NCBI GenBank assembly: GCA_016185525.1
Contig: JACPNK010000007.1
Location: 23,008 to 87,007 of the forward strand
Direction: 5' to 3'
Origin: Candidatus Yanofskybacteria bacterium
Lineage (GTDB): Bacteria; Patescibacteriota; Minisyncoccia; 2-02-FULL-40-12; IGHO2-12-FULL-4
Length of the DNA: 64,000 nucleotides
A program made the translations under genes and the position numbers. This document shows positions 41,192 to 64,000 of this stretch, one piece after another; position 1 is the first letter of the stretch; each line of letters begins with the position of its first letter. The notes under the pieces are model-generated. The model saw nothing but the letters and a program-made list of their open reading frames with translations. It was not told where the DNA came from and did no database searches.

Positions 41192-42339
41192 AATTCTTAG
41201 AAGATTTAGGTAAAAAAGAGCTTGACGAAAAAAAAGTTTTTTTGAGGGTTGATTTTGATGTACCCGTTGAAGCTGGAAAAATTAAAGAAAACTTCCGCAT
41301 CAAGGCACAAAAAGAGACCATTGATTATTTGGCAAATAACGGCGCCAAGGTGATGCTGGCTGGCCACATTAGCTCCACTGATAGTTTCTTTTCGATCGCA
41401 GAGGAGATAGGAGAAATTATTGGACATACTTTAACTTTAGTGCCTCATTCAGAATTGAACTCTATTGGCAGTCTTTTCACAGAATGCCCAGTTTTACTTT
41501 TGGATAATTTAAGACAAGACTCTCGCGAGGAACAAAACAAGGATGAGTTTGCTCGGGGGCTGTCTAAGGGTTTTGACTTTTATGTAAACAACGATTTTGC
41601 GGTTTGCCACCGCAGTCACGCTTCAGTTTCAGCAATCACTAAATACTTACCTAGTTATGCCGGTTTCTTGGTTAAAAAAGAAGTAGAAAATTTGTCTAAA
41701 GCCATAAAGGCTCCGCTGGAAGGCAAGATATTGGTTGTGGGCGGAGCTAAAATTTCTACAAAACTGCCGGTGATCAAAAACTTTTTAGATAAAGCCGAGA
41801 AAGTTTTGATTGGCGGGGCGTTGGCCAATAACTTTTTTAAAGAACAAGGAGTAAGTGTCGGCTCTTCTGTTGTTGACAACTCGGTTACCCCCAACTTTCT
41901 GACACCCGGTGTCAGAAAGTTGATTTTACCGGAAGACATCTTGGTTTCATTTGATAAAACCGGAGAAACAACTCCCGAGTCGTATCCCGTTAAAAATTTA
42001 GATCCAGCTGGTATCATCGTTGATATTGGTCCGGAAACGGCCAAACATTTTGGGGAGATAATCAGAAATTCATCAATGGTAATTTGGAACGGGCCGATGG
42101 GTTTGTCGGAAGTAGAAAAGTTTGCTGGAGGAACAAGGGTAATTGCTGAAGCTGTTACTAAAGCTAAGTATTCCATTATTGGTGGCGGCGATACGGTTGC
42201 CGCAGTTGACAAGCTTGGTTTGCTTGGTAAATTCAGCTATGTTTCCACGGGCGGTGGCGCTATGCTGGCTTTTCTGGCAGGAGAAGAGCTGCCGGGGTTG
42301 AGGGTGTTGGGCTACTATCCGGACCAATCTAACCAGTAA
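41188..42339 (+). CDS. pgk: Phosphoglycerate kinase
   Basis: Full-length PGK (...STGGGAMLAFLAGEELPGL). Confidence 0.92.
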   Translation: MKFLEDLGKKELDEKKVFLRVDFDVPVEAGKIKENFRIKAQKETIDYLANNGAKVMLAGHISSTDSFFSIAEEIGEIIGHTLTLVPHSELNSIGSLFTECPVLLLDNLRQDSREEQNKDEFARGLSKGFDFYVNNDFAVCHRSHASVSAITKYLPSYAGFLVKKEVENLSKAIKAPLEGKILVVGGAKISTKLPVIKNFLDKAEKVLIGGALANNFFKEQGVSVGSSVVDNSVTPNFLTPGVRKLILPEDILVSFDKTGETTPESYPVKNLDPAGIIVDIGPETAKHFGEIIRNSSMVIWNGPMGLSEVEKFAGGTRVIAEAVTKAKYSIIGGGDTVAAVDKLGLLGKFSYVSTGGGAMLAFLAGEELPGLRVLGYYPDQSNQ

Positions 42340-54882: not shown

Positions 54883-54953
54883 GCGGGCGTCGTATAGTGG
54901 CAATACATTAGCTTCCCAAGCTAAGGACGGGAGTCCGATTCTCCTCGCCCGCT
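54883..54953 (+). tRNA. tRNA-Gly (anticodon CCC), CCA not encoded
   Basis: Acceptor GCGGGCG/CGCCCGC. D arm GTAT-AGTGGCA-ATAC. Anticodon arm TTAGC-TTCCCAA-GCTAA. T arm GGGAG-TCCGATT-CTCCT. Discriminator U. Confidence 0.8.
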
Positions 54954-55110
54954 CAAAAAGATAATTTTTTCTAAAAATTCTCAAATAAGTCAGTAGTCAT
55001 CTTAATTTTCAGAGGTTCGAACCTTGTGTTTTTTGATTTATGAGTAAAGTTATAAAAAGTTACGATTTACTATGCAATATCTATGCTTCTAAGAGGTCCG
55101 AACCTAAAAA

Positions 55111-55139
55111 CAAAGCCCTTCGTTCTAAGAAGGGCATAT
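55111..55139 (-). terminator. Hairpin gcccttc-ttagaac-gaagggc followed by a U-run on the minus strand
   Basis: Read from the reverse complement. Confidence 0.5.
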
Positions 55140-55149
55140 ACAGCAAACT

Positions 55150-55524
55150 CTAGCTCATAAATACACAGTCGGGTTCCAGATATGAAACCCCATCTTCATC
55201 TACACGGTACTTTAGTCGTGCTCCGCCGCCAGACAGAGTTGCAACGTCTTCAAATGCTATTAAAGCCGTTATCTCAAACTCGGTTTGAGCCGTAGAAAAA
55301 TCGGTAATGGTAAATATCCCATATCGCCTGCCGTAAGAATATTTTTCAAATATCTTGTCCAGAGGTGCTTCGGTTTCTAAATCTTCAGGAACATATAGAC
55401 CGCCTGGTCTGTGTTCATGATTAGCTTTTAAATCTCTTAGGATGTTTCTGAAAACATTTTCGTTATCCCTGGCGGCTTGCCTATAATCTTGGACAGGATA
55501 CATACGGAGTTCCCCCTTCAACAT
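55150..55524 (-). CDS. Hypothetical protein
   Basis: 124 aa ORF followed by a terminator. Confidence 0.4.
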   Translation of the reverse strand: MLKGELRMYPVQDYRQAARDNENVFRNILRDLKANHEHRPGGLYVPEDLETEAPLDKIFEKYSYGRRYGIFTITDFSTAQTEFEITALIAFEDVATLSGGGARLKYRVDEDGVSYLEPDCVFMS

Positions 55525-55649
55525 TAAAACATTATATAGTAAAGTTATAAACTAGTCAAGTTTTTAATTGATTTTAGCCACTTCTGCTGTTAAACTAGGT
55601 ATATGAAATAAGTCAGTTGATGACTGGAAATAGGTTCTAATGTCATCCC

Positions 55650-57509
55650 CTAAACGGGGTCTGCAAGATTGTGATTGTTTATAATTTCTGCGATCTCTTT
55701 GCTGTTCAAAGTTTCTTTCTGAAGAAGTTCCTTGACCAAAAAAATTAAAGTTTCTTTGTTTTCATTAAGAATTTTTTCGGCTTTTTCTTTACCCTCTCTC
55801 AAGATTCTGTCTATTTCTTCATCAACCTGCTCGGCTTTCTTCTGGCTGGCGTTAACGCCTGTTTGCGTAGCCATAACTTTTCCTAAAAAAGGATGCTCTG
55901 TGTCTTTGCCGAATGTTCTTAAACCAAGAAGGTCGCTCATGCCGTATTTTGTAACCATCTCCCAAGCTTTTTCCGTTGCAACTTTAAGGTCGTTGGAAGC
56001 GCCGGTTGTCTCTATCTTGAGGAATATTTTTTCCGCGCATCGGCCGGCCATTAAAACGGCAATCTGGCTTTCAAAGTATTGTTTTGAATAGTTATATTTT
56101 TCTTCCGAGGGCAATGTCTGGGTAAGTCCCAGAGACATACCTCGGGGAATAATCGTGACTTTGTGCACCGGGTCGCTTTCAGGAGTAAGGCACGCGACCA
56201 AAGCATGTCCGGCTTCGTGGTAAGCGATGACCTCTTTGTCTTTTTCGGTCATGATCAAGCCTTTTCTTTCCTTGCCCATCATGACTTTTTCTTTGGCTTC
56301 CTCAAGGTCAGACGGTGTGACGCTTTTTCTGTCATATTTGGTGGCGTTCAGACTGGCTTCGTTTATCAAGTTGGCAAGTTGAGCTCCGGAAAAACCCGGC
56401 GTCCCTCTGGCGATGACTGAAAGATTCACATCTTCGGCTAAGGGTACATTTTGGCTGTGGACTTTCAGTATGGCCTCTCTGCCTCTGACGTCCGGCAAGG
56501 GGACAACTACTTCTCGGTCAAACCGGCCCGGTCTTAAGAGCGCTGGGTCAAGAACGTCCGGTCGGTTTGTAGCGGCTAAGATAATTACTCCCTTTTCCGA
56601 TTCAAAGCCATCCATTTTAACCAATAGTTGATTTAAAGTTTGTTCCCGTTCATCGTGGCCTCCGCCCAAGCCGGTGCCGCGGTGTCGTCCGATGGCGTCA
56701 AGTTCATCAATGAATACTATGCAAGGAGCGTGCTTTTTGCTTTGTTCAAACAGATCCCTTACTCTGGACGCTCCCACACCAACGAACATTTCCACAAAAT
56801 CTGAACCGCTGATTGAGAAAAACGGCACGTCAGCTTCACCGGCCACGGCTCTGGCTAAAAGTGTTTTGCCGGTACCCGGCGCGCCTACCAATAGCACCCC
56901 TTTGGGTATGTGGCCGCCCAGTCTTTGAAATCTTCCCGGATCTTTGAGGAATTGGATTATTTCAGTCAGCTCCTCTTTCGCCTCATCTACTCCGGCCACA
57001 TCCTGGAAAGTTACTTTTTTGTCCTGGTTGGGAGCAAAAAGTTTGGCCTTGCTTTGTCCGAAGGAAGAGAGTCCCTTTGAAGAACTGCCTATCCGTTTAG
57101 TCATAAAAATAAAGAAGGCCACAAAAAACAAAAGAGAAAGGAGGGGGAGAATCACATTCAAGTTCAAGATACTTTCTTGTTCCGGCAGGATATTAACCTT
57201 GACATTTTGCGCGGCTAAGCTATCGGCGATTCTGGAGGTTGAGGCCGAGGGGATATGGGTTTTAAAGTTCCTTACTTCTTTGCTGTCAGAGTTTTTATAC
57301 TTACCCTTAACTTCATCCTCATTTATAATGATAACTTCTGTAACTTCCCCTTTCTCAATTTTTTGCTGGAGAACTGTATAGTCAATTTCTTCTTCCGGAA
57401 TACCTCTTTTTCCGGTAAACATAGTTAAGATGAAATAGAACATTCCTATGGCCAAAGTCCAAGCCAAAATATTGCGTAATGTCAGCGGATCTTTTCTTGG
57501 ATCTTTCAT
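55650..57509 (-). CDS. ftsH: ATP-dependent zinc metalloprotease FtsH
   Basis: [18 protein letters not shown] Walker A, SRF and HEAGHA zinc site. Confidence 0.95.
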
Positions 57510-57607
57510 TATTCTGCCTTTTTAAAGAACCTTTGATTTTATTGGCTTACTTTACATTAGTGCATAGTATTAGTCAAACTAGAAAGCTTGTAAAATACCG
57601 CTTCTTT

Positions 57608-57741
57608 AGTACGTTCGTCTGCTCCTGCCTGCCTGCCGGCAGGCAGGCGGCAGACTCACTCGCGCTGAAGTTGGGGTTTGCTCGCAGTTATAAGAATAAT
57701 TATACTGCTCGCAACCAAGCAACCCTCAACTTCAGAGCGAC
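57608..57741 (+). repeat. Second copy of the structured element seen at 31378-31544, here with an expanded (cctgcctgcc/ggcaggcagg) hairpin
   Basis: About 90% identity over the shared blocks. It lies in the prfB 5' region. Confidence 0.7.
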
Positions 57742-57771
57742 CGCAGAAGGCAACTGCGTTACAATTTAAAG

Positions 57772-58804
57772 ATGGCCGAAAAAGACACCAAAATAGAAGA
57801 TTTAAAAACTGAACTCCGCCAGCTTGCGGAGCGTCTTTGAGGTTGCTCAAAAGACAGAAAAAATCAAAGAGATTGAGGTAAAAATGCAGGCTTCGGATTT
57901 TTGGAAGGACTACGAATCGGCCCAAAAAATGACCGGTGAGCTAAGTTATTTGAAGAGTGAAGTTGAGGAGGTTGAGAAACTGGAAAAAGACTTTGAAAAT
58001 CCGGAACTTTGGCAGGAAGCAGAAAAAAGACTTAAGTCTTTGAAGCTTAAAACTCTTTTTTCAGGAAAGTATGACAAAAGCAATGCTTTGCTTGAAGTTT
58101 TTTCCGGCGCCGGTGGGATAGATGCCCAGGATTGGGCAGCTATGCTTTTCAAGATGTATCAGCGTTACGCGGAAAAAAATAATTTTAATTTCAGAATTTT
58201 ACATCAGTCTTTCGGAGAGCAGAAAGGTTTAAAGTCGGCTACAGCCGAGATCAAGGGCAAGTTTGCTTACGGTTATTTGAAAGGCGAGTCGGGTGTGCAC
58301 CGCTTAGTCAGAATTTCGCCATTTTCAGCCAAAAACTTGAGACATACTTCATTTGCTTTGGTTGATTTTCTGCCTTTGATTGAGGATGTCAGTTTTCAAG
58401 TCAGAACCGAAGATTTAAAAATAGACACATTCAAGTCGTCCGGTCCCGGCGGTCAGAATGTAAATAAACTGGAGACGGCCGTAAGGGTTACTCATTTGCC
58501 AACCGGTTTGGCGGTGGCGGTGCAATCAGAAAGATCACAGAGTCAAAACAAGGAAAAAGCTTTGCAGGTGCTATACGCTAGGCTGGCGCAGTTAATGGAG
58601 AAACAAAAGATAGAAGAGCTTTCAAAGTTAAAGTCGCAAAAGGAACCGGGCGGCGTGGAGTGGGGCAGTCAGATCAGGTCTTATGTTTTGCATCCTTACA
58701 AATTAGTGAAAGATCACAGAACAGGTGTGGAATCTTCCCAGCCGGAAAAAGTTTTGGACGGAGAATTGGAGGAATTTATTGAAGCAGAAGTCAGTTTATT
58801 ATGA
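57772..58804 (+). CDS. prfB: Peptide chain release factor 2, with programmed +1 frameshift at CUU UGA (57835-57840)
   Basis: Frame 0 from ATG 57772 reads MAEKDTKIEDLKTELRQLAERL then hits an in-frame TGA. An SD-like GGAG lies 3 nt upstream of CTT. The +1 frame continues EVAQKT... through the SPF and GGQ motifs. Confidence 0.9.
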
Positions 58805-59484
58805 TTCATTTTAAAAAAGTAACAAAAAAATATAACCATGATTTCTGGGCTCTTCACGGAGTTGATCTTGAAATTAAAGACGGAGAGTTTGTTTCCCTGG
58901 TCGGACCTTCCGGAGCGGGTAAGTCTACTTTGATAAAGATGCTTATCAAGGAAGACCGGCCTACTTCCGGCCAGATTCTTTTGGACAATGTTGATTTGGC
59001 CGACGTGCCTGATCAGGACATTCCTTTTTTGAGAAGAAAGATCGGAATGATTTTTCAAGATTTTCGTCTGCTTGAGAGCAAAACGGCTTTTGAAAATGTA
59101 GCCTTTGCTTTGGAGGTTTCCGGTGTGCCGGAAGAAAGCATAGCCGAAGACGTAAAACAGGTTTTAACGATTGTCGGCCTTTCAGACAAGCAAAAAAACT
59201 TTCCGCGGGAGCTTTCCGGCGGAGAAAAACAAAGGCTGGCTTTGGCTAGAGCCTTGGTGCACAGGCCAAAGATAATTTTGGCCGATGAACCGACCGGCAA
59301 CTTGGATTTAGTCAACAGCTATGATGTGGTAAAATTACTTTGGCGGATCAATGAACTTGGGACTACGGTGATTCTGGCTACGCATGATGTTCAGATTGTA
59401 AATACGGTGGGCAAGAGGGTGGTGACTATGGAAAAAGGCAAAGTAGTCAGAGATCAGCTTGAGGGCGGGAAATATATAATTTAA
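58801..59484 (+). CDS. ftsE: Cell division ATP-binding protein FtsE
   Basis: ABC ATPase (GPSGAGKST, LSGGEKQR), paired with ftsX. Confidence 0.9.
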   Translation: MIHFKKVTKKYNHDFWALHGVDLEIKDGEFVSLVGPSGAGKSTLIKMLIKEDRPTSGQILLDNVDLADVPDQDIPFLRRKIGMIFQDFRLLESKTAFENVAFALEVSGVPEESIAEDVKQVLTIVGLSDKQKNFPRELSGGEKQRLALARALVHRPKIILADEPTGNLDLVNSYDVVKLLWRINELGTTVILATHDVQIVNTVGKRVVTMEKGKVVRDQLEGGKYII

Positions 59485-59486
59485 AC

Positions 59487-60416
59487 ATGGAGAAACAGAA
59501 GGATTATAAAAATTATTCTTTGGGCAGAATTATCAAAACCGGCTGGGTCAGTTTCAGGCGCAACAGTTTTTTGAGTTTCGGCGCGACGGGCGTGATGGCT
59601 CTGGCTTTGCTTGTTTTTTCAAGCTTGATTGTTTTTAATTTTTTTACCAACCGCCTGATCAGTTTTTTAGATGAAAAAGTTGATGTCAGCGTTTATTTTC
59701 AAGGCGAGGCCAAGGAAGACCAAATTCTTAAAATTAAGTCTGATCTGGAAAGCTTATCAAGCGTAGAAAGGGTTGTTTATGTTTCGCGAGAGCAGGCTCT
59801 TGAAGATTTTAAAGTCCGCCATAAAGACGATCAGCTGATCCAGGATTCATTGGCGGAATTGGAGTCCAACCCTCTGCAGGCTTCTTTGAACGTTAAAGCT
59901 ATAGACACCGGACAGTATGCGTCAATTACAAACTTTTTGGAACAAAACAGTCTGAAGACTGTTATTGATAAGATAAGTTTTTACGAAAACGAGGGGGCGA
60001 TAGAGAGGGTCAGAGGTTTTTCCAGAGGTTTGTATGGTTGGGGACTTTTGGCCACGATTGCTTTGGGACTGGTGGCGGTGCTGGTAACTTTTAATACAAT
60101 CCGGCTGACTATATATAACAAAAAAGAGGAGATTGAAATCATGAAGTTGGTGGGAGCGTCCAATTGGCATATCCGCGGACCATTTTTGGTTGAGGGCGGA
60201 CTCTATGGTCTTTTTGCCGCCGTCTTGGCTCTGGCCATATTTTATCCGGGTATTTATTTTGTTTCAGACAAGCTTGGCGCTTTAGCTTCTTCTTTGAATC
60301 TTTTTTCATATTTCGTCGGCTACTCTTTGCAAATGATTTTAGTGATTGTCGGTTCTGGTCTGGCTCTCGGTGTTTTTAGCAGTTTCTCGGCCATCAGAAG
60401 GCACCTCAAAATTTAA
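59487..60416 (+). CDS. ftsX: Cell division permease FtsX
   Basis: 4-TM FtsX-like permease directly after ftsE. Confidence 0.85.
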   Translation: MEKQKDYKNYSLGRIIKTGWVSFRRNSFLSFGATGVMALALLVFSSLIVFNFFTNRLISFLDEKVDVSVYFQGEAKEDQILKIKSDLESLSSVERVVYVSREQALEDFKVRHKDDQLIQDSLAELESNPLQASLNVKAIDTGQYASITNFLEQNSLKTVIDKISFYENEGAIERVRGFSRGLYGWGLLATIALGLVAVLVTFNTIRLTIYNKKEEIEIMKLVGASNWHIRGPFLVEGGLYGLFAAVLALAIFYPGIYFVSDKLGALASSLNLFSYFVGYSLQMILVIVGSGLALGVFSSFSAIRRHLKI

Positions 60417-60478
60417 TAGACTATGGACAGATGGTTCAAGTTATGATAGTATCTTGAGAAGCAGAAAAGGAGGTTAAG

Positions 60479-60637
60479 ATGTTGAAAGTAGCGGACCTTA
60501 AAAAGCTGTTAGTTTTTGTGCTGGTGGTTGTCCTGGTCATATTTTTGGCAGGATTTTTGAAAATGATTTTTCTGCCAGTAATTATCGGCTTGGTTGTATG
60601 GCAGATTATAAGGCTTGTCTTAGGGAAAGAACATTAA
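60479..60637 (+). CDS. 52-aa single/double-TM membrane peptide (not in ORF track)
   Basis: Strong AAAGGAGG RBS 8 nt upstream of the ATG. The protein reads MLKVADLKKLLVFVLVVVLVIFLAGFLKMIFLPVIIGLVVWQIIRLVLGKEH. Its stop overlaps the next ATG (taATG). Confidence 0.5.
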   Translation: MLKVADLKKLLVFVLVVVLVIFLAGFLKMIFLPVIIGLVVWQIIRLVLGKEH

Positions 60638-61152
60638 TGAAAGAAATTGAGAGGAAGTTTTTAGTTAAGAAGTTACCGCCAGGTTACAATTTTTCAAGGT
60701 CTAAAATAAGGCAAGGTTACATTGTAATTTCGCCAGATTTAAAAAGCTGCGTTAGGCTTAGGGAAGAAAGACATTTGCCCGAAAAAGGATTTAAGTTCAG
60801 AGCTTTCAAAGAATTTACACAGACTGTCAAGCGAGGCAGTGGCAAGGTCAGGGATGAGTTTGAGATAGAGACTTTTCAATGGCAATTTACGGCGCTTTGG
60901 CCGACAACTGCCGGAAGAAGGCTGGAAAAAACAAGAAATTATTTCTATGACCCGTCTTTTTACAAAGGGCAACTGTGTCTTCTGGACGTTTTTCATAAAA
61001 ATCTTAAGGGATTGATTCTGGTTGAGGTGGAGTTTAACTCTGAAAAGGAAGCCGATGCTTTTGTTCCGCTTGATTGGTTCGGAAAAGAAGTTACGGAAGA
61101 TAAGAGATACAGTAACCAAAGTCTCGCCACGCACGGTCTGCCAGCCGGATAG
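60637..61152 (+). CDS. CYTH-domain protein (CyaB/thiamine-triphosphatase-like triphosphate tunnel metalloenzyme)
   Basis: N-terminal EIERKFLV (ExExK) signature. ATG 60637 is translationally coupled to the upstream peptide. Confidence 0.65.
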   Translation: MKEIERKFLVKKLPPGYNFSRSKIRQGYIVISPDLKSCVRLREERHLPEKGFKFRAFKEFTQTVKRGSGKVRDEFEIETFQWQFTALWPTTAGRRLEKTRNYFYDPSFYKGQLCLLDVFHKNLKGLILVEVEFNSEKEADAFVPLDWFGKEVTEDKRYSNQSLATHGLPAG

Positions 61153-61165
61153 ACAAGTTTGCCAT

Positions 61166-61191
61166 AGAGCGTTAACACGCTCTTTTGTTTT
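61166..61191 (+). terminator. Terminator agagcg-ttaaca-cgctct plus tttgtttt; its 3' half is duplicated at 62857-62879
   Basis: Read directly from the sequence. Confidence 0.6.
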
Positions 61192-61195
61192 AAAT
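61173..61195 (+). repeat. 23-bp direct repeat taacacgctcttttgttttaaat (left copy) bounding the GC-rich segment
   Basis: Identical 23-mer at 62857-62879. Confidence 0.8.
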
Positions 61196-61196
61196 C

Positions 61197-61319
61197 GCGG
61201 CGGCAGATAAGCTGTAACTCTCACCCCAATACAACTTTGTCTCTACTGGTGGTGGGGCAGTGCTAGCATTCCTGGCGGGGGAAGAGTTGCCAGGGTTAAA
61301 AGCTTTGGAAACAGTCTAA
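61197..61319 (+). pseudogene. pgk: Phosphoglycerate kinase 3'-terminal fragment with an internal stop
   Basis: Translates AAADKL*LSPQYNFVSTGGGAVLAFLAGEELPGLKALETV*. This is about 85% identical at the protein level to the C-terminus of the intact pgk at 42.2 kb, but divergent at synonymous sites. Confidence 0.6.
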
Positions 61320-61362
61320 TTTTGACTATTTTTCGGGGGTTTTGGTCGGGTAGTACATACAC

Positions 61363-61391
61363 TTGACAAACCCATAAAAAAAGAGTATAAT
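61363..61391 (+). promoter_or_regulatory. Perfect consensus sigma70 promoter TTGACA, 17-nt spacer, TATAAT
   Basis: Exact match read directly from the sequence. It points into the GC-rich segment. Confidence 0.55.
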
Positions 61392-61599
61392 TAAAGTATT
61401 GAAAAGTGGTTATTCCGGGTCACGGGTCAGCCTTTTTTCATTTTTTGCTCTTTTATAAATAAAAATAAATAAAAAAGACTTTTACCCCGACGCGAAGGGG
61501 ACTGACGGTCGCGAGCAGAGGCAATTACGCTTCTTCGCGGCCAAGGTAGTTGCAGTAAAAAATCAGTCCCGCTATGGAGCGCGGACGGGGGAGAAGAAA

Positions 61600-61818
61600 A
61601 TGTTATTAGTAGGGATGTGGGTGGAAGTGAGTGGAGTCGCAATGAATTATGACTCCACTAAAAAAATGTATTTACCCGCCGCGGCAAGAGGCGAACGGGG
61701 GGTTGTTAACTCCAACCATCCCAGTGGGATGGTTGGAGTCAGATTTTCAAAGTTTGTAGGATACGGCCATCAGCCGTACTTCTACTACTTTAAGGAAAGC
61801 GATCTCATCGAGTTATAA
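61600..61818 (+). CDS. Hypothetical 72-aa protein (aromatic-rich C-terminus), ends inside a 15-bp perfect hairpin
   Basis: GGGGGAGAAG RBS before the ATG. A hairpin ggaaagcgatctcat...atgagatcgctttcc lies at 61781-61822. Confidence 0.3.
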   Translation: MLLVGMWVEVSGVAMNYDSTKKMYLPAAARGERGVVNSNHPSGMVGVRFSKFVGYGHQPYFYYFKESDLIEL

Positions 61819-62113
61819 TGAGATCGCTTTCCAAGGGTTTGAGGATTTTCCCGCGGTAAATAAAAATCCTAGCTCTTTCAATAAAAGCGCAAAGAAAGGA
61901 GAACATTTGCACATAAGATAGCAGGGGATCGTCCTGCTGAAAAAACGACTAGGTCTGGCGAGTACCTGAAACTAAAACTCGCCACCTTAACTCAAGCTAT
62001 CAATATAGTGTTGACGGCTTGATCCAAGGTTAGGACGTTAAAAAAATAAATAGCCGGGTTTAACTCGGCGAGCAGGGGACTGCTTGAGTGTCCCACCCTT
62101 GAAAGGAGGGTTT

Positions 62114-62278
62114 ATGAGATCAGAGGTTTTATTGAACAGATTAGATATGGAGGCAGCACTGGCGAATGCCTCCGAAGAAATTTTGACCCCGTACTGGGGG
62201 GTGGTGGGTGGCGTGACCAAAATGGGAGTCGCCGCCGCGATAGCAACAGGGCGGGGGCCAGGAGTGGTCAATAAGTAA
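62114..62278 (+). CDS. 54-aa Gly/Ala-rich small peptide, bacteriocin-like (speculative)
   Basis: AAAGGAGGG RBS 4 nt before the ATG. Sequence MRSEVLLNRLDMEAALANASEEILTPYWGVVGGVTKMGVAAAIATGRGPGVVNK. Confidence 0.35.
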   Translation: MRSEVLLNRLDMEAALANASEEILTPYWGVVGGVTKMGVAAAIATGRGPGVVNK

Positions 62279-62303
62279 TGGCCACCTGTCGCCCAAAAGC
62301 GAT

Positions 62304-62492
62304 TTGGTAATTTATGTAAATATTGCCCTCGCGGAGTTGGTGGGCGGCAAGGCGGAAGCCCAGGGGCTGACGCCAACTTTATTGAGAAGGAGATTGGAGA
62401 GGATGGGGCTACTCACCGAGGCCGGTGAGTGGCGGACAGGTTGGATCGGGAACCGTTATCGGTTCCAGGTGGATCCGGTGGCCTGTCGGTAG
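62304..62492 (+). CDS. Second small ORF (62 aa from TTG 62304, or 29 aa from ATG 62404 which has an AAGGAG/GGAGAGG RBS)
   Basis: Contains LAELVGG. Followed 4 nt later by a terminator. Confidence 0.3.
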   Translation: MVIYVNIALAELVGGKAEAQGLTPTLLRRRLERMGLLTEAGEWRTGWIGNRYRFQVDPVACR

Positions 62493-62495
62493 AAT

Positions 62496-62518
62496 CGTCG
62501 GCAGGATCGACGTTTTTT
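62496..62518 (+). terminator. Terminator cgtcg-gcaggat-cgacg plus T6
   Basis: Read directly from the sequence. Confidence 0.6.
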
Positions 62519-62823
62519 AGTGAATTGAATCGCAATGCTTCTTCGGAAATGCACAGCGATTCGACCGCATGGGTAATGGCGGTATAGCCGGGCGCAAGCT
62601 CGAGGTGCATGGATCGAAGATTTCTTTCGACCCTGGTAAATTAAAAATCCGAGCATGACCTACCTTTTGCCGCGAGGCATCTAGAGGGTCATGGGCTCCT
62701 ACGAATTGGAGCAAAATGCAATCATAAAGAATTTATATATAGGGAGATCTCGTTTGATCGACATCTCCCTTCCTTACTCAAGTTCGGAAGTGAAAACTTA
62801 CGAATTTGAATGAAAGTTTTTTT

Positions 62824-62851
62824 GAGCCAGCCCCAAGCTGGCTCTTGTTTT
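62824..62851 (+). terminator. Terminator gagccagc-cccaa-gctggctc plus ttgtttt
   Basis: Read directly from the sequence. Confidence 0.6.
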
Positions 62852-62856
62852 ACCCG

Positions 62857-62879
62857 TAACACGCTCTTTTGTTTTAAAT
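62857..62879 (+). repeat. 23-bp direct repeat, right copy
   Basis: Identical to 61173-61195. Confidence 0.8.
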
Positions 62880-62955
62880 TATTTTAGTTAAGATGAAATT
62901 ATTGCGGGATCGTCTAGTGGTATACAAAAATCAAAGTCTATGATAGAATTAATGT

Positions 62956-63858
62956 GTGGAAAGTTGTAAATTATGCGATAAAAAATTCAAAATAATAAGT
63001 AACACGCACCTATTACTGGCACATCAAATTAGAGTTCGAGACTACATTAAAAAATTTGGTCATAAAGGGGTGGGCTTTATTGTTAATGTTTTAAAATTGC
63101 CAAAGGACGACCCGCGTTATATTTTTTGGAGGAAAAGTTTGGAAAGAAGAAATACGGGCTGGGCTAAGGGTTTTACCAAAAATACTCATCCTAGCTTAGC
63201 AAAAATGGCCCAAACTTTTAAAACAAAGAAGATTGATAATTTTAAAAAATGGAGGGAAGAGTCTAAGCTATCTGGTAAAATTCCTGCAAGTTATCCTGAA
63301 TTTAAAAAAGATAAGAACTTGGCTTTTTTGATAGGGATGACCTTGGGTGATGGTAATATATATAAATTTCCAAGAACAGAGAACTTAAGGATAGCGTTGG
63401 CCTCCAAATATCCTAAGTTGGTTGCATTTACTGCCAATGTCATTAAAAAAGTTTTTAGCAAAACTCCGACCGTTAGGAAAATCAAAAATTCAAGGTGCTT
63501 TACGGTTGGCATTTACCAAAACAATATCAGTAGTCGCCTTGGCATTCCAACAGGAGAAAGGAGTCGACTCAATTTTAACATACCAAGTTGGATTTCCGAA
63601 AATAAAATTTTTCTTACAAATTTTCTAAGAGGATTATTTGAGGCAGAGGGTTCCCTTTCGGTTCATTTGCCGACATGTACTTATAACTTCTCTTTTGCTA
63701 ATAGAAACAAAAGTTTATTGAAAATTGTTGAAAAGTCGTTAAAATTACTAGGTTATCATCCAGAAATAAGATCTGTTGCTGTTCGTTTGCGTAGAAAGGT
63801 CGAAGTTGAGAATTTTAAGCAGTTAATTAGTTTTAGAGTTTACAAATTGCGGGGTTGA
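62956..63858 (+). CDS. LAGLIDADG-type homing endonuclease with an N-terminal C2H2-like zinc finger
   Basis: CKLCDKKF...HLLLAH, then two dodecapeptide motifs (KNLAFLIGMTLGDGNIY and FLRGLFEAEGSLSV). GTG start. The 3' end overlaps tRNA-Gln by 11 nt. Confidence 0.6.
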   Translation: MESCKLCDKKFKIISNTHLLLAHQIRVRDYIKKFGHKGVGFIVNVLKLPKDDPRYIFWRKSLERRNTGWAKGFTKNTHPSLAKMAQTFKTKKIDNFKKWREESKLSGKIPASYPEFKKDKNLAFLIGMTLGDGNIYKFPRTENLRIALASKYPKLVAFTANVIKKVFSKTPTVRKIKNSRCFTVGIYQNNISSRLGIPTGERSRLNFNIPSWISENKIFLTNFLRGLFEAEGSLSVHLPTCTYNFSFANRNKSLLKIVEKSLKLLGYHPEIRSVAVRLRRKVEVENFKQLISFRVYKLRG

Positions 63859-63922
63859 GCAATGGTAGTCTCGTCAGGCTCTGAACCTGAAGATCCTGGT
63901 TCAAGTCCAGGCCCCGCAGCCA
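63848..63922 (+). tRNA. tRNA-Gln (anticodon CTG), CCA encoded
   Basis: Acceptor TGCGGGG/CCCCGCA with U1-A72 and G73 discriminator (Gln-typical). Anticodon arm TCAGG-CTCTGAA-CCTGA. T arm CCTGG-TTCAAGT-CCAGG. 3' end CCA. Confidence 0.85.
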
Positions 63923-64000
63923 ACAAGGATAAGATTAGATTGAAAGGTTTAAGATTTAGAATAAAAAAACGGGCAAAGTCCGAAAGGGACTACCCTGTGT

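Follow-up and report, generated by a model that had tools for sequence, protein, structure and literature searches.

Among the systems described so far, those most similar to the locus analyzed here are the fungal mitochondrial "gene hybrids", found in the atp6 gene of Allomyces macrogynus and in the atp6, atp9, cox2, and nad3 genes of Glomus, in which the native remnant resembles the gene of a relative and the working copy is foreign (PMC3630166). Another precedent is the autorepression of I-TevI, whose operator resembles the homing site and overlaps its own promoter (PMC2988022). In bacteria of the candidate phyla radiation (CPR), group I introns are present in tRNAs other than the one considered below (PMC13011429), and a paper on rRNA insertions of this same group mentions tRNA 0 times (PMC11270868). 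Neither the survey of tRNA introns nor that of rRNA insertions reports the cassette presented here, and no account of such a tRNA-Gln cassette was found by full-text searching of the literature; the combination of box, ORF, and tRNA seems to be undescribed so far.

The window, i.e., the whole stretch of DNA that was analyzed, comprises 64,000 nucleotides of an ultra-small CPR bacterium, a Candidatus Yanofskybacteria bacterium, and all coordinates given below refer to it. Our main reading, to which we assign a probability of about 0.7, is that the region spanning approximately 62924-63922, together with a tRNA-5' box at 62903-62923, constitutes a free-standing homing endonuclease cassette located in the 5' part of a tRNA-Gln(CTG) gene. 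The cassette is best read as a promoter, an I-DmoI-like zinc-finger endonuclease, and a complete tRNA-Gln(CTG) with a non-resident D-arm, all of them, like the box, on the plus strand.

The ORF (62956-63858) starts with GTG and encodes a free-standing, monomeric, two-motif LAGLIDADG endonuclease of 300 aa. The protein matches the Pfam family LAGLIDADG_3 in two stretches with an E-value of 1.9e-10, over the curated cut-off; this is the profile check that the earlier note had suggested. The LAGLIDADG enzyme with an N-terminal zinc finger proposed there is borne out. Motif 1 (LAFLIGMTLGDGN; 63319-63357, aa 122-134) contains the catalytic Asp132, and motif 2 (FLRGLFEAEGS; 63622-63654, aa 223-233) the catalytic Glu231. 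None of the residues G131-D132-G133 and E229, A230, and E231 varies among 20 relatives, and both catalytic acids are retained throughout the family, with GDG in 88/88 members and EAEG or EAEA in 88/88. Two LAGLIDADG motifs, each ended by an acidic residue, are the signature of a monomeric two-motif enzyme as far as the sequence can tell, and the pseudo-symmetric alpha-beta-beta-alpha-beta-beta-alpha fold, repeated twice, is predicted by the AlphaFold2 model (pLDDT 88.9). A profile search against the PDB matched I-DmoI (E 3.5e-5), and the best Foldseek matches of the model in the PDB (top E 2.2e-8) include I-DmoI (TM 0.64-0.68, target-normalised), I-AniI, and PI-PfuI; I-DmoI is thus the best match among solved structures by both sequence and fold.

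The N-terminal region contains a Ros/MucR-like Cys2-His2 zinc finger (CKLCDKKFKIISNTHLLLAH; 62965-63024) whose residues Cys4, Cys7, His18, and His23 are unchanged across the 20 relatives. The match of the window protein to the Pfam family ROS_MUCR is weak, PF05443 is precomputed for some of its homologues, and the finger region forms a beta-hairpin plus a helix in the AlphaFold2 model. The subfamilies of about 260 and 232 aa are devoid of the finger. We found 463 homologues of the 300-aa protein at E<=0.001, and the best 120 of them, leaving out the window's own protein, share 46-77% identity with it. The public record of an identical protein (P0002, 239 aa) lacks the first 61 codons, and with them the zinc finger, and some relatives are mislabelled as WhiA in the databases.

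Ahead of the ORF, a consensus scan of the window detected a promoter-like site (62921-62949) composed of TATACA, a 17-nt spacer, and a TG-extended TAGAAT. Its end is 6 nt ahead of the GTG, and it is not accompanied by a Shine-Dalgarno motif, as in leaderless genes, suggesting that transcription may start near the GTG. The same architecture is recurrent in the family: a TANNNT sequence ends 4-9 nt ahead of the start codon in 59/74 loci (TG-extended in 43), and a Shine-Dalgarno-like motif appears in 0/74. The tRNA-5' box overlaps the -35 of the endonuclease promoter in the window and the -10 in other lineages.

The tRNA-Gln(CTG) at the other end of the cassette (63848-63922) is intact, with an encoded CCA and a fully paired acceptor stem (7/7), and was recognized by ARAGORN and by the Rfam tRNA model (54.6 bits); we take it as the working copy. 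Its D-arm is GAGC..TCTC, the canonical one being GTCT..GGAC. The TGA stop of the ORF (63856-63858) falls 11 nt inside this gene, in agreement with the earlier note, which had the ORF ending within the first 11 nt of an intact tRNA-Gln. The note had also pointed to an upstream stretch resembling the tRNA 5' end; its sequence, tgcgggatcgtctagtggtat, was right, although it is not placed at 62912-62935 but at 62903-62923.

This box (TGCGGGATCGTCTAGTGGTAT) comprises the acceptor 5' strand, the D-stem 5' strand, and the D-loop of a tRNA, and ends 33 nt before the GTG, counted from the conserved GGTA at 62919-62922. The 22-nt match at 73% between the box and the window tRNA would be, taken alone, weak evidence. 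That the box is a general motif of this genome was discarded, since no other good match to it exists elsewhere in the window. The comparison with the closest endonuclease-free relative, L208, is more telling. The box is identical to the tRNA of L208 at 20/21 positions and to its own tRNA at 14/21, and the lineage variant TCTAGTGG is common to the window box and the L208 tRNA. The working tRNA of the window shares 50/73 positions with that of L208, and two endonuclease-free relatives share 59/72. The sequence comparisons thus support that the box is the displaced 5' end, of about 21 nt, of the resident tRNA-Gln(CTG) gene that received the endonuclease gene, and that the cassette carries along at least the 5' part of the working tRNA gene, and probably all of it. 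Since the cassette brings its own divergent tRNA or 5' tRNA segment, the tRNA beside the ORF cannot simply be equated with the former resident gene.

A box was located upstream of the ORF in at least 51/74 non-redundant homologous loci, and its distance to the start codon is fixed at 33 nt in about 23 of them, the window included. Across loci, the box has retained its D-arm part and its acceptor part is decaying, a contrast inflated by the fact that the boxes were found via a D-arm motif. Other origins for the box were considered and discarded. Gene conversion between a box and its own tRNA was rejected, as the tRNAs of other loci resemble the box just as much (6.6 of 13 positions, compared with 6.4 for its own tRNA), and an origin in tRNA-Gln(TTG) was dropped since the tRNA-Gln(TTG) sequence of L002 is unrelated.

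The cassette was found patchily in at least 87 related genomes, all of them Patescibacteria (CPR). The order tRNA-5' box, leaderless-type promoter, ORF, and tRNA-Gln(CTG) is reported for 87/87 informative loci, with the box itself counted in at least 51/74 as stated above, and tRNA-Gln(CTG) lies 3' of the ORF on the same strand in all 87, which belong to Parcubacteria and Microgenomates lineages. Among the 74 non-redundant loci, the distance between the ORF stop and the beginning of the tRNA is between -15 and +39 nt, and it is 0-7 nt in 50/74. In many loci, the cassette directly follows ftsX, and three different N-terminal architectures of the enzyme occur inside one host clade. No family-wide conserved sequence that could be part of the cassette was found downstream of the tRNA, and carriage by phages was discarded, as no relatives of the endonuclease were found in the IMG/VR viral contigs.

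The existence of alleles devoid of the endonuclease has allowed us to compare occupied and empty versions of one site. In endonuclease-free relatives, ftsE-ftsX is followed, directly in several of them, by an uninterrupted tRNA-Gln(CTG); in L099, L113, L118, L149, L157, and L204, the tRNA starts 2-61 nt after the ftsX stop, and the site is also empty in L208-L215. In cassette loci, the box begins a few nt past the ftsX stop and matches the tRNA through GGTAGGA, so that the position of the box is the position where the tRNA starts in the empty alleles. The insertion into the 5' end of tRNA-Gln postulated in the earlier note is borne out by these ftsE-ftsX alleles, which have the whole tRNA where the others have the box. 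The endonuclease-free loci did not contain any convincing endonuclease remnant, which counts against homing.

Several observations point to the mobility of the cassette. Carriers and non-carriers are interleaved in the FtsX+FtsE neighbour-joining tree, and the endonuclease gene is lacking in 8/8 of the closest FtsX-anchored relatives, which were picked blind to tRNA and endonuclease. The composition of the gene is also foreign: the ORF has 34.1% GC in a window of 41.4%, and the mean GC3 of the endonuclease genes is 31%, compared with 46% for the neighbouring ftsEX, being lower in 23/26 loci. Moreover, the identity among endonucleases follows that of the host marker only loosely (Mantel r 0.39), with discordant pairs such as those of L068, and the comparison of L001 with L002 hints at conversion tracts ending inside the tRNA. 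The earlier note had stated that an ORF-tRNA pairing conserved in related genomes as ancestral synteny would speak against it. The pairing is indeed conserved (87/87), and ancestral synteny does not hold, because close relatives lack the gene and carriers are interleaved with non-carriers on the host-marker tree; it is a conserved property of a mobile cassette. On the other side, the tRNAs do not follow either the endonuclease or the host in their similarity (matrix correlations, r 0.07 and 0.09, respectively), values that were uninformative on a joint transfer of tRNA and endonuclease.

The D-arm of the tRNA might hold a hint of immunity to cleavage. The canonical D-arm is present in 6/8 endonuclease-free tRNAs, in 10/75 cassette-linked ones, and in 0/22 of those beside zinc-finger-type enzymes, counts that ignore the kinship among loci. 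Nevertheless, some cassette tRNAs are identical to empty alleles across the presumed target, e.g., that of the cassette-bearing L058, whose enzyme belongs to the 232-aa subfamily, over its first ~45 nt, and thus a simple immunity by target change fails for some subfamilies. Moreover, L212 has neither endonuclease nor box and carries the GATA..TATC D-arm found beside the L001 endonuclease, indicating that D-arm variants are also natural polymorphisms.

On the homing reading, the enzyme would target a canonical tRNA-Gln(CTG) gene that is still uninterrupted and cleave it at about tRNA position 21-24, i.e., in the D-loop or the 3' D-stem, and a cassette-bearing copy would serve as repair template, with the tRNA 5' segment as left homology arm and the tRNA 3' part as right arm. 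The promoter, ORF, and replacement segment of the tRNA would be copied in by this repair, and the first ~21-24 nt of the resident gene would remain stranded upstream as the box. The replacement tRNA would maintain the viability of the cell and, because its D-arm is re-coded, would probably no longer be a substrate for cleavage. For the box, two roles are conceivable, alone or together: that of a half-site operator in autorepression and that of the left homology arm.

A rather doubtful extension of this scheme is a CPR-wide tRNA gene drive, in which the host tRNA-Gln(CUG) would be replaced by a cleavage-resistant copy, with addiction through promoter capture and the half-site as operator. Since the tRNA abuts the ORF and leaves no room for a separate promoter, the cell could produce this essential tRNA solely as the terminal part of the endonuclease transcript, and the loss of the endonuclease would then cost the cell its tRNA. 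If true, this would explain the intact copies of a selfish gene and would be direct evidence of frequent DNA exchange among CPR lineages.

An unlikely alternative to homing is that the protein has been domesticated, i.e., that a LAGLIDADG gene entered the tRNA-Gln locus once in ancient times, was kept for a host function, and became patchy by repeated loss. The protein might then be a DNA-binding regulator of its own transcription and that of the tRNA, with the box as operator, or an RNA/DNA chaperone for the tRNA-Gln(CTG) transcript. Decayed copies are expected of a homing cycle, and yet all 88 endonuclease copies look intact, which fits domestication, with the proviso that the homologue search favoured intact copies. 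It also counts against homing, and in favour of a host function, that the endonuclease is on average at least as conserved as FtsEX (mean pairwise identity of 54.6 and 48.8%, respectively). The significant correlation of its identity with that of the host marker (Mantel r 0.39, 0/2000 permutations), the promoter architecture and 33-nt spacing fixed in about 23 loci, the retention of the D-arm part of the box while its acceptor part decays, and the lack of relatives in viral contigs can be read in favour of domestication. Domesticated relatives such as WhiA and the maturases typically lose the catalytic acids. Here, on the contrary, both are invariant, the sister lineages and all 8 nearest FtsX relatives have clean endonuclease-free alleles, and the gene remains AT-rich relative to its neighbours. 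In addition, pristine boxes match actual tRNA sequences of relatives, as would be expected if the insertions were independent and recent, and a single ancient entry does not sit well with three N-terminal architectures in one host clade.

The tRNA-like duplication could also be explained by an interrupted tRNA, in which the box would be the true 5' exon and the ORF stretch a group I, group II, or archaeal-type intron, or by an integrase-type island. The box resembles a well-formed tRNA 5' end, group I introns exist in other CPR tRNAs (PMC13011429), and in L002 the pairing of the tRNA 3' strand is complete (7/7) with the acceptor strand of the box, compared with one G.G mismatch for the proximal 5' strand. 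This lead failed to generalize: the proximal tRNA is complete and paired 7/7 in 51/51 loci, whereas the box reaches a mean of 3.8/7 pairs with the 3' acceptor strand. The D-stem strand of the box has no 3' partner, and the box does not resemble its own tRNA more than those of others. With 33 nt upstream of the ORF and none downstream, there is no space for a ribozyme core, and when 58000-64000 was searched against Rfam at E<=1, the tRNA and two chance-level matches were returned, with no intron or ribozyme. The pairing and similarity counts effectively refute the split tRNA, and the judgment of the earlier note that this is not an intron stands. In the integrase scenario, which we regard as highly improbable, the 61.2-63.9 kb stretch would be one element site-specifically recombined at tRNA-Gln, with the box as duplicated att core. 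Foreign-looking DNA flanked by a tRNA-like duplication, the adjoining GC-rich block, and the presence in L002 of a gene for a large serine recombinase immediately 3' of this tRNA would be compatible with it. However, no recombinase is encoded between the box and the tRNA, the two copies of the repeat, which is located at the tRNA 5' end, share only 14/21 positions, and the cassette directly follows ftsX in many loci. The GC-rich block (61196-62856, 1.7 kb) has its own perfect 23-nt direct repeats, whose end is 22 nt upstream of the box, and a foreign pgk 3' fragment lies at its beginning; none of the remaining loci that were fetched contains it, among them the 87 further endonuclease loci. Thus, the single element of 61.2-63.9 kb envisaged in the earlier note is not borne out, and the block is an insertion separate from the endonuclease cassette. 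Its small ORFs have no Pfam matches. The product of orf184 and that of the 181-aa ORF occupying the corresponding place in L209 are not homologous.

If the homing reading is correct, a family of free-standing LAGLIDADG homing endonucleases would here have a bacterial tRNA gene as its target and restore it by supplying a replacement segment, a strategy documented, as far as we found, only for mitochondrial protein genes. Since homing requires donor and recipient DNA in one cell, the patchy spread of the cassette would be a usable marker of gene flow across many CPR lineages of uncultured, host-dependent bacteria. Specificity studies and enzyme engineering would also benefit from the family, which offers dozens of naturally occurring variants of the enzyme, a conserved gene in which the ~20-bp target is predictable, and matched, putatively resistant, tRNA alleles.

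Concerning the known systems, the enzyme resembles WhiA in that both are bacterial chromosomal proteins on a LAGLIDADG scaffold. The LAGLIDADG_WhiA match of our protein (E 0.0063, 17.1 bits) is under the 23.2-bit Pfam cut-off, and the Pfam search of the 300 aa detected neither the WhiA HTH domain nor any HTH family; unlike WhiA, the enzyme retains its catalytic acids and has a patchy, not universal, distribution. As in the integrative elements that target tRNA genes, a working tRNA and a partial duplicate are present after insertion. Those elements rely on an integrase and on identical att core sequences, which are usually placed at the tRNA 3' end. The cassette contains no recombinase, and its duplicate is at the 5' end and only 14/21 identical. 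The free-standing endonucleases of phage T4 that perform intronless homing, such as SegB, encoded between tRNA genes, also have their own promoter and lie beside tRNA genes, but they belong to the GIY-YIG or HNH families and to a phage host, and the listed target of SegB is a tRNA intergenic region, with no gene segment duplicated (PMC2988022). The overlap of the tRNA-like box with the -35 or the -10 recalls the operator of I-TevI, although autorepression is here hypothetical. With the I-DmoI group, our enzyme shares two LAGLIDADG motifs per chain, a catalytic acid in each, and the predicted fold, and with the LAGLIDADG enzymes of CPR rRNA insertions (PMC11270868), the same bacterial group. 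It differs from them in lying outside any intron, intein, or rRNA insertion, in its association with a tRNA gene, and in its N-terminal extension of ~120 aa with the Cys2-His2 finger.

The gene hybrids offer the closest parallel. In both cases, a free-standing endonuclease ORF (LAGLIDADG or GIY-YIG) brings a foreign copy of the segment that it displaces, and the native segment stays as an unused remnant, which here is the box, 20/21 identical to the tRNA of L208, to which the working tRNA is identical at 50/73 positions. Nevertheless, the host gene is here a bacterial tRNA gene instead of a mitochondrial protein gene, and the remnant overlaps the endonuclease promoter. Moreover, it is the 5' end that has been replaced, and thus the ORF lies upstream with no in-frame fusion, whereas the gene hybrids show a 3' duplication that is often fused in frame. 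The cassette is therefore not a member of the gene hybrids in the narrow sense, but it works like the elements that form them.

An ORF of 300 aa runs from a GTG at 62956 to a TGA on the plus strand of the window (62956-63858), and its stop codon lies 11 nt within a tRNA-Gln(CTG) gene of the same strand (63848-63922; called by ARAGORN, 54.6 bits with Rfam). Upstream, also on the plus strand, there is a 21-nt stretch resembling the 5' end of a tRNA-Gln(CTG), here called the box (TGCGGGATCGTCTAGTGGTAT, 62903-62923), and a consensus scan finds a promoter-like site (62921-62949) consisting of TATACA, a 17-nt spacer and TAGAAT, with a TG upstream of TAGAAT. The ORF, the tRNA and the overlap of the stop codon are as the earlier note described them, but the box had been placed about 9 nt too far downstream.

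The ORF product matches the Pfam family LAGLIDADG_3 (E 1.9e-10), as had been anticipated from its motifs, and residues 4-36 show a weak match to ROS_MUCR. In an alignment of 20 relatives, Cys4, Cys7, His18 and His23 are invariant, as are Gly-Asp-Gly of motif 1 and Glu-Ala-Glu of motif 2, and both acidic residues are kept in 88/88 family members collected. I-DmoI is the first match in a PDB profile search (E 3.5e-5). The AlphaFold2 model (mean pLDDT 88.9) also matches I-DmoI (TM-score about 0.67, normalised to the target), and I-AniI, PI-PfuI and others come next. Judged by sequence and predicted fold, the product is a LAGLIDADG enzyme of the monomeric two-motif type, whose active site is intact and which bears an additional module of DNA-binding type at its N-terminus. 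The window belongs to a Patescibacteria (CPR) genome, and an identical protein is on public record for a Candidatus Yanofskybacteria assembly (P0002); that entry, 239 aa long, begins at an internal TTG (residue 62) and thus lacks the first 61 residues, including the conserved zinc finger, whereas the GTG start at 62956 is backed by 296-aa relatives. One source names some relatives 'DNA-binding transcriptional regulator WhiA', a label that is unsupported because the catalytic residues are retained and the HTH domain is absent.

A search with the protein finds 463 homologues (E<=0.001), of which the best 120 are mostly 230-310 aa long and, the window's own protein excepted, 46-77% identical. Loci were collected by exact look-up (7) and from the genomes of species representatives (80), and a tRNA-Gln(CTG) directly follows the ORF on the same strand in 87/87 loci, a tally of loci not ended by a contig edge or a run of N. 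Among 74 non-redundant loci, the distance from stop codon to tRNA ranges from -15 to +39 nt, being 0-7 nt in 50, and the stop lies within the tRNA in 9. The box is found upstream of the ORF in at least 51 of these 74 loci (consensus TTGCSGGRTCRTCTAATGGTAG), and in about 23 loci, the window among them, precisely 33 nt separate its end from the start codon; in Microgenomates-type loci, the TGGTA of the box is joined straight onto TATAAT. A TANNNT hexamer ends 4-9 nt before the start codon in 59/74 loci (TG-extended in 43 of these), and a Shine-Dalgarno-like motif precedes the ORF in none of the 74. Expression of the endonuclease is probably of the leaderless type.

A metagenome scan for the canonical 5' part of tRNA-Gln(CTG) returned 120 loci, only 1 of them with the endonuclease. 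In six CPR-like loci (L099, L113, L118, L149, L157 and L204), an uninterrupted tRNA-Gln(CTG) begins 2-61 nt after ftsE-ftsX. The same ftsE-ftsX neighbours are shared by 36 cassette-bearing loci, where the box starts a few nt past the ftsX stop and matches the tRNA through GGTAGGA (about position 24). Uninterrupted tRNA alleles are thus found in related genomes where the box starts in carriers, consistent with the event at the tRNA 5' end suspected in the earlier note. Empty ftsX-tRNA alleles, together with a box at the tRNA start, indicate that the ancestral order is ftsX, tRNA-Gln and the derived one ftsX, box, promoter, ORF, tRNA-Gln.

We have also picked 8 FtsX homologues (58-78% identity) solely on the length of their contigs, without regard to tRNA or endonuclease. 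All 8 loci are endonuclease-free, with tRNA-Gln(CTG) 70-2400 nt after ftsX. The window box agrees at 20/21 positions with the 5' end of the tRNA in L208, the closest relative among these (FtsX 78%), with which it has the lineage variant TCTAGTGG in common, versus 14/21 for the window's own tRNA. The working tRNA of the window matches that of L208 at 50/73 positions, whereas two endonuclease-free relatives match each other at 59/72. Upstream of the window box, a terminator, TTTTGTTTTAAA and a short spacer resemble the region upstream of the intact tRNA of locus L209. The same signature is known from the gene hybrids of Allomyces and Glomus mitochondria, where a native remnant matches a relative, the working copy is divergent, and endonuclease-mediated replacement of a gene segment has been inferred (PMC3630166).

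The order tRNA-Gly(CCC), tRNA-Thr(CGT) (in relatives), prfB, ftsE, ftsX, tRNA-Gln(CTG) is common to many Parcubacteria (window 54883-60416; loci L213-L215), and in the window ftsH and a 124-aa ORF on the minus strand lie between tRNA-Gly and prfB. Short conserved stretches occur 5-35 nt past tRNA-Gln(CTG) in loci L041, L051 and L053, e.g., CACATTACACGCCGAGTRACTGAGTCGC, and similarly in L020/L023 and L039/L040; they are limited to subsets of loci in different hosts, with no family-wide conservation, and candidates for their identity are a further small RNA, a family of terminators and an attachment site.

The earlier note had suggested that the neighbouring GC-rich block and the endonuclease may form one element spanning 61.2-63.9 kb, a proposal that does not hold. 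The block (61196-62856, 1.66 kb) is bounded by its own perfect 23-nt direct repeats (TAACACGCTCTTTTGTTTTAAAT, 61173-61195 and 62857-62879), which correspond to the loop, 3' half and T-tract of the terminator following a 184-aa ORF, and stops 22 nt short of the box. In the other 87 loci the cassette is present and the block is not, the cassette often lying straight after ftsX, and no counterpart of the block was found in about 215 fetched loci. The first part of the block is a 3' fragment of a phosphoglycerate kinase gene of foreign origin, which shares about 72% identity with the end of the window's own pgk (42196-42330); a perfect TTGACA-17-TATAAT promoter follows (61363-61391). The small ORFs of the block gave no Pfam match and the block no Rfam match. 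The block is separate from the endonuclease cassette.

Loci with the endonuclease (28) and without it (11) are intermingled in a neighbour-joining tree built from FtsX+FtsE. Within the window's clade, L140 (without) and L068 (with) are sisters; L113, L118 and L157, all without the endonuclease, nest together with L041 and L060, which have it. In 23/26 loci the endonuclease gene is richer in AT than its neighbours (mean GC3 31% vs 46%), and the window ORF has 34.1% GC vs 41.4% for the whole window. Endonuclease identity follows host-marker identity only moderately (Mantel r 0.39); between L068 and the window the flanks are 60% identical and the endonuclease core only 45%, with a different N-terminal architecture. 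The window box and the L001 box resemble different natural variants of the tRNA, and so suggest that the insertions were separate. We consider it probable (about 0.7) that the ORF and the tRNA form a homing-type cassette, and are less confident of its specific regulatory and immunity details.

The endonuclease of L001 and L003 is identical to that of L002, and their tRNA differs from that of L002 at several T-arm and 3' acceptor-strand positions (tRNA 3' part and region beyond it, L002:3438-4978). In L002 an intact 493-aa large serine recombinase gene lies right after the tRNA, and L001 and L003 have a shortened 312-aa version. The L002 tRNA carries a G4.G69 mismatch, and the L002 box (TGCCGGG) could form 7/7 pairs with the 3' strand of that tRNA. 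The differences may stem from a second, recombinase-borne element that uses the tRNA 3' end, or from a conversion tract that stopped within the tRNA.

An intron, or a box acting as a tRNA half, has been rejected, in agreement with the earlier note regarding the intron: the acceptor-like part of the box pairs with the tRNA 3' strand at a mean of 3.8/7 positions versus 7/7 for the genuine 5' end, the D-stem strand of the box lacks a partner, Rfam gives no ribozyme or intron family in the region, and the space up to the tRNA is taken up by the ORF. Boxes are no more like their own tRNA (6.4/13) than those of other loci (6.6/13). They run from pristine to decayed: 14/51 are at most 1 nt off a real tRNA-Gln 5' 21-mer from elsewhere, and the remaining ones have mostly lost the acceptor part. 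The D-arm part is better conserved, partly an ascertainment effect since boxes were found via the D-arm motif. In locus L056 the box is interrupted by a GC-rich hairpin-like insert of about 45 nt (TTGCCGGATCGCCTGCCTGCCATGCCTGCGCATGTAGGGCAAGCAGGTCTAATGGTAG) that looks like a miniature insertion within the remnant. A role of the box as operator for the endonuclease promoter is plausible, because it overlaps the -35 or -10 and spans about half a LAGLIDADG site beside the junction; I-TevI binds a homing-site-like operator overlying its own promoter (PMC2988022). A putative role as left homology arm is plausible as well.

A function of the endonuclease retained by the host also fits the data, since the gene is intact in 88/88 copies and the average conservation of the protein matches that of FtsEX; neither decayed copies nor remnants of the gene were seen in the loci examined, with a search method that favours intact genes. 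Within the homing-type reading, re-coding of the working tRNA to escape cutting has partial support: the canonical D-arm (GTCT..GGAC) is present in 6/8 endonuclease-free tRNAs and 10/75 cassette-linked ones (Fisher p 4.7e-4, without phylogenetic correction), and in 0/22 beside zinc-finger-type enzymes. However, the tRNA of the cassette-bearing L058 equals endonuclease-free alleles across its first ~45 nt, and L212, without endonuclease or box, has a "re-coded" D-arm.

In full-text literature searches, no account of LAGLIDADG genes associated with tRNA-Gln in CPR bacteria came up. In a recent survey of tRNA introns in Patescibacteria (PMC13011429), tRNA-Gln is not mentioned and no LAGLIDADG enzymes are reported from the introns, and a survey of CPR rRNA insertions contains no mention of tRNA (PMC11270868). 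The closest known systems in function are the mitochondrial gene hybrid elements; I-DmoI-type LAGLIDADG enzymes belong to the same protein family, and free-standing phage endonucleases ("intronless homing"), including SegB, which is located among the T4 tRNA genes (PMC2988022), have a similar lifestyle. Unlike all three, the CPR cassette lies in a bacterial chromosome, has a tRNA gene as its predicted target, duplicates the 5' end of that gene, and carries the remnant over its own promoter.
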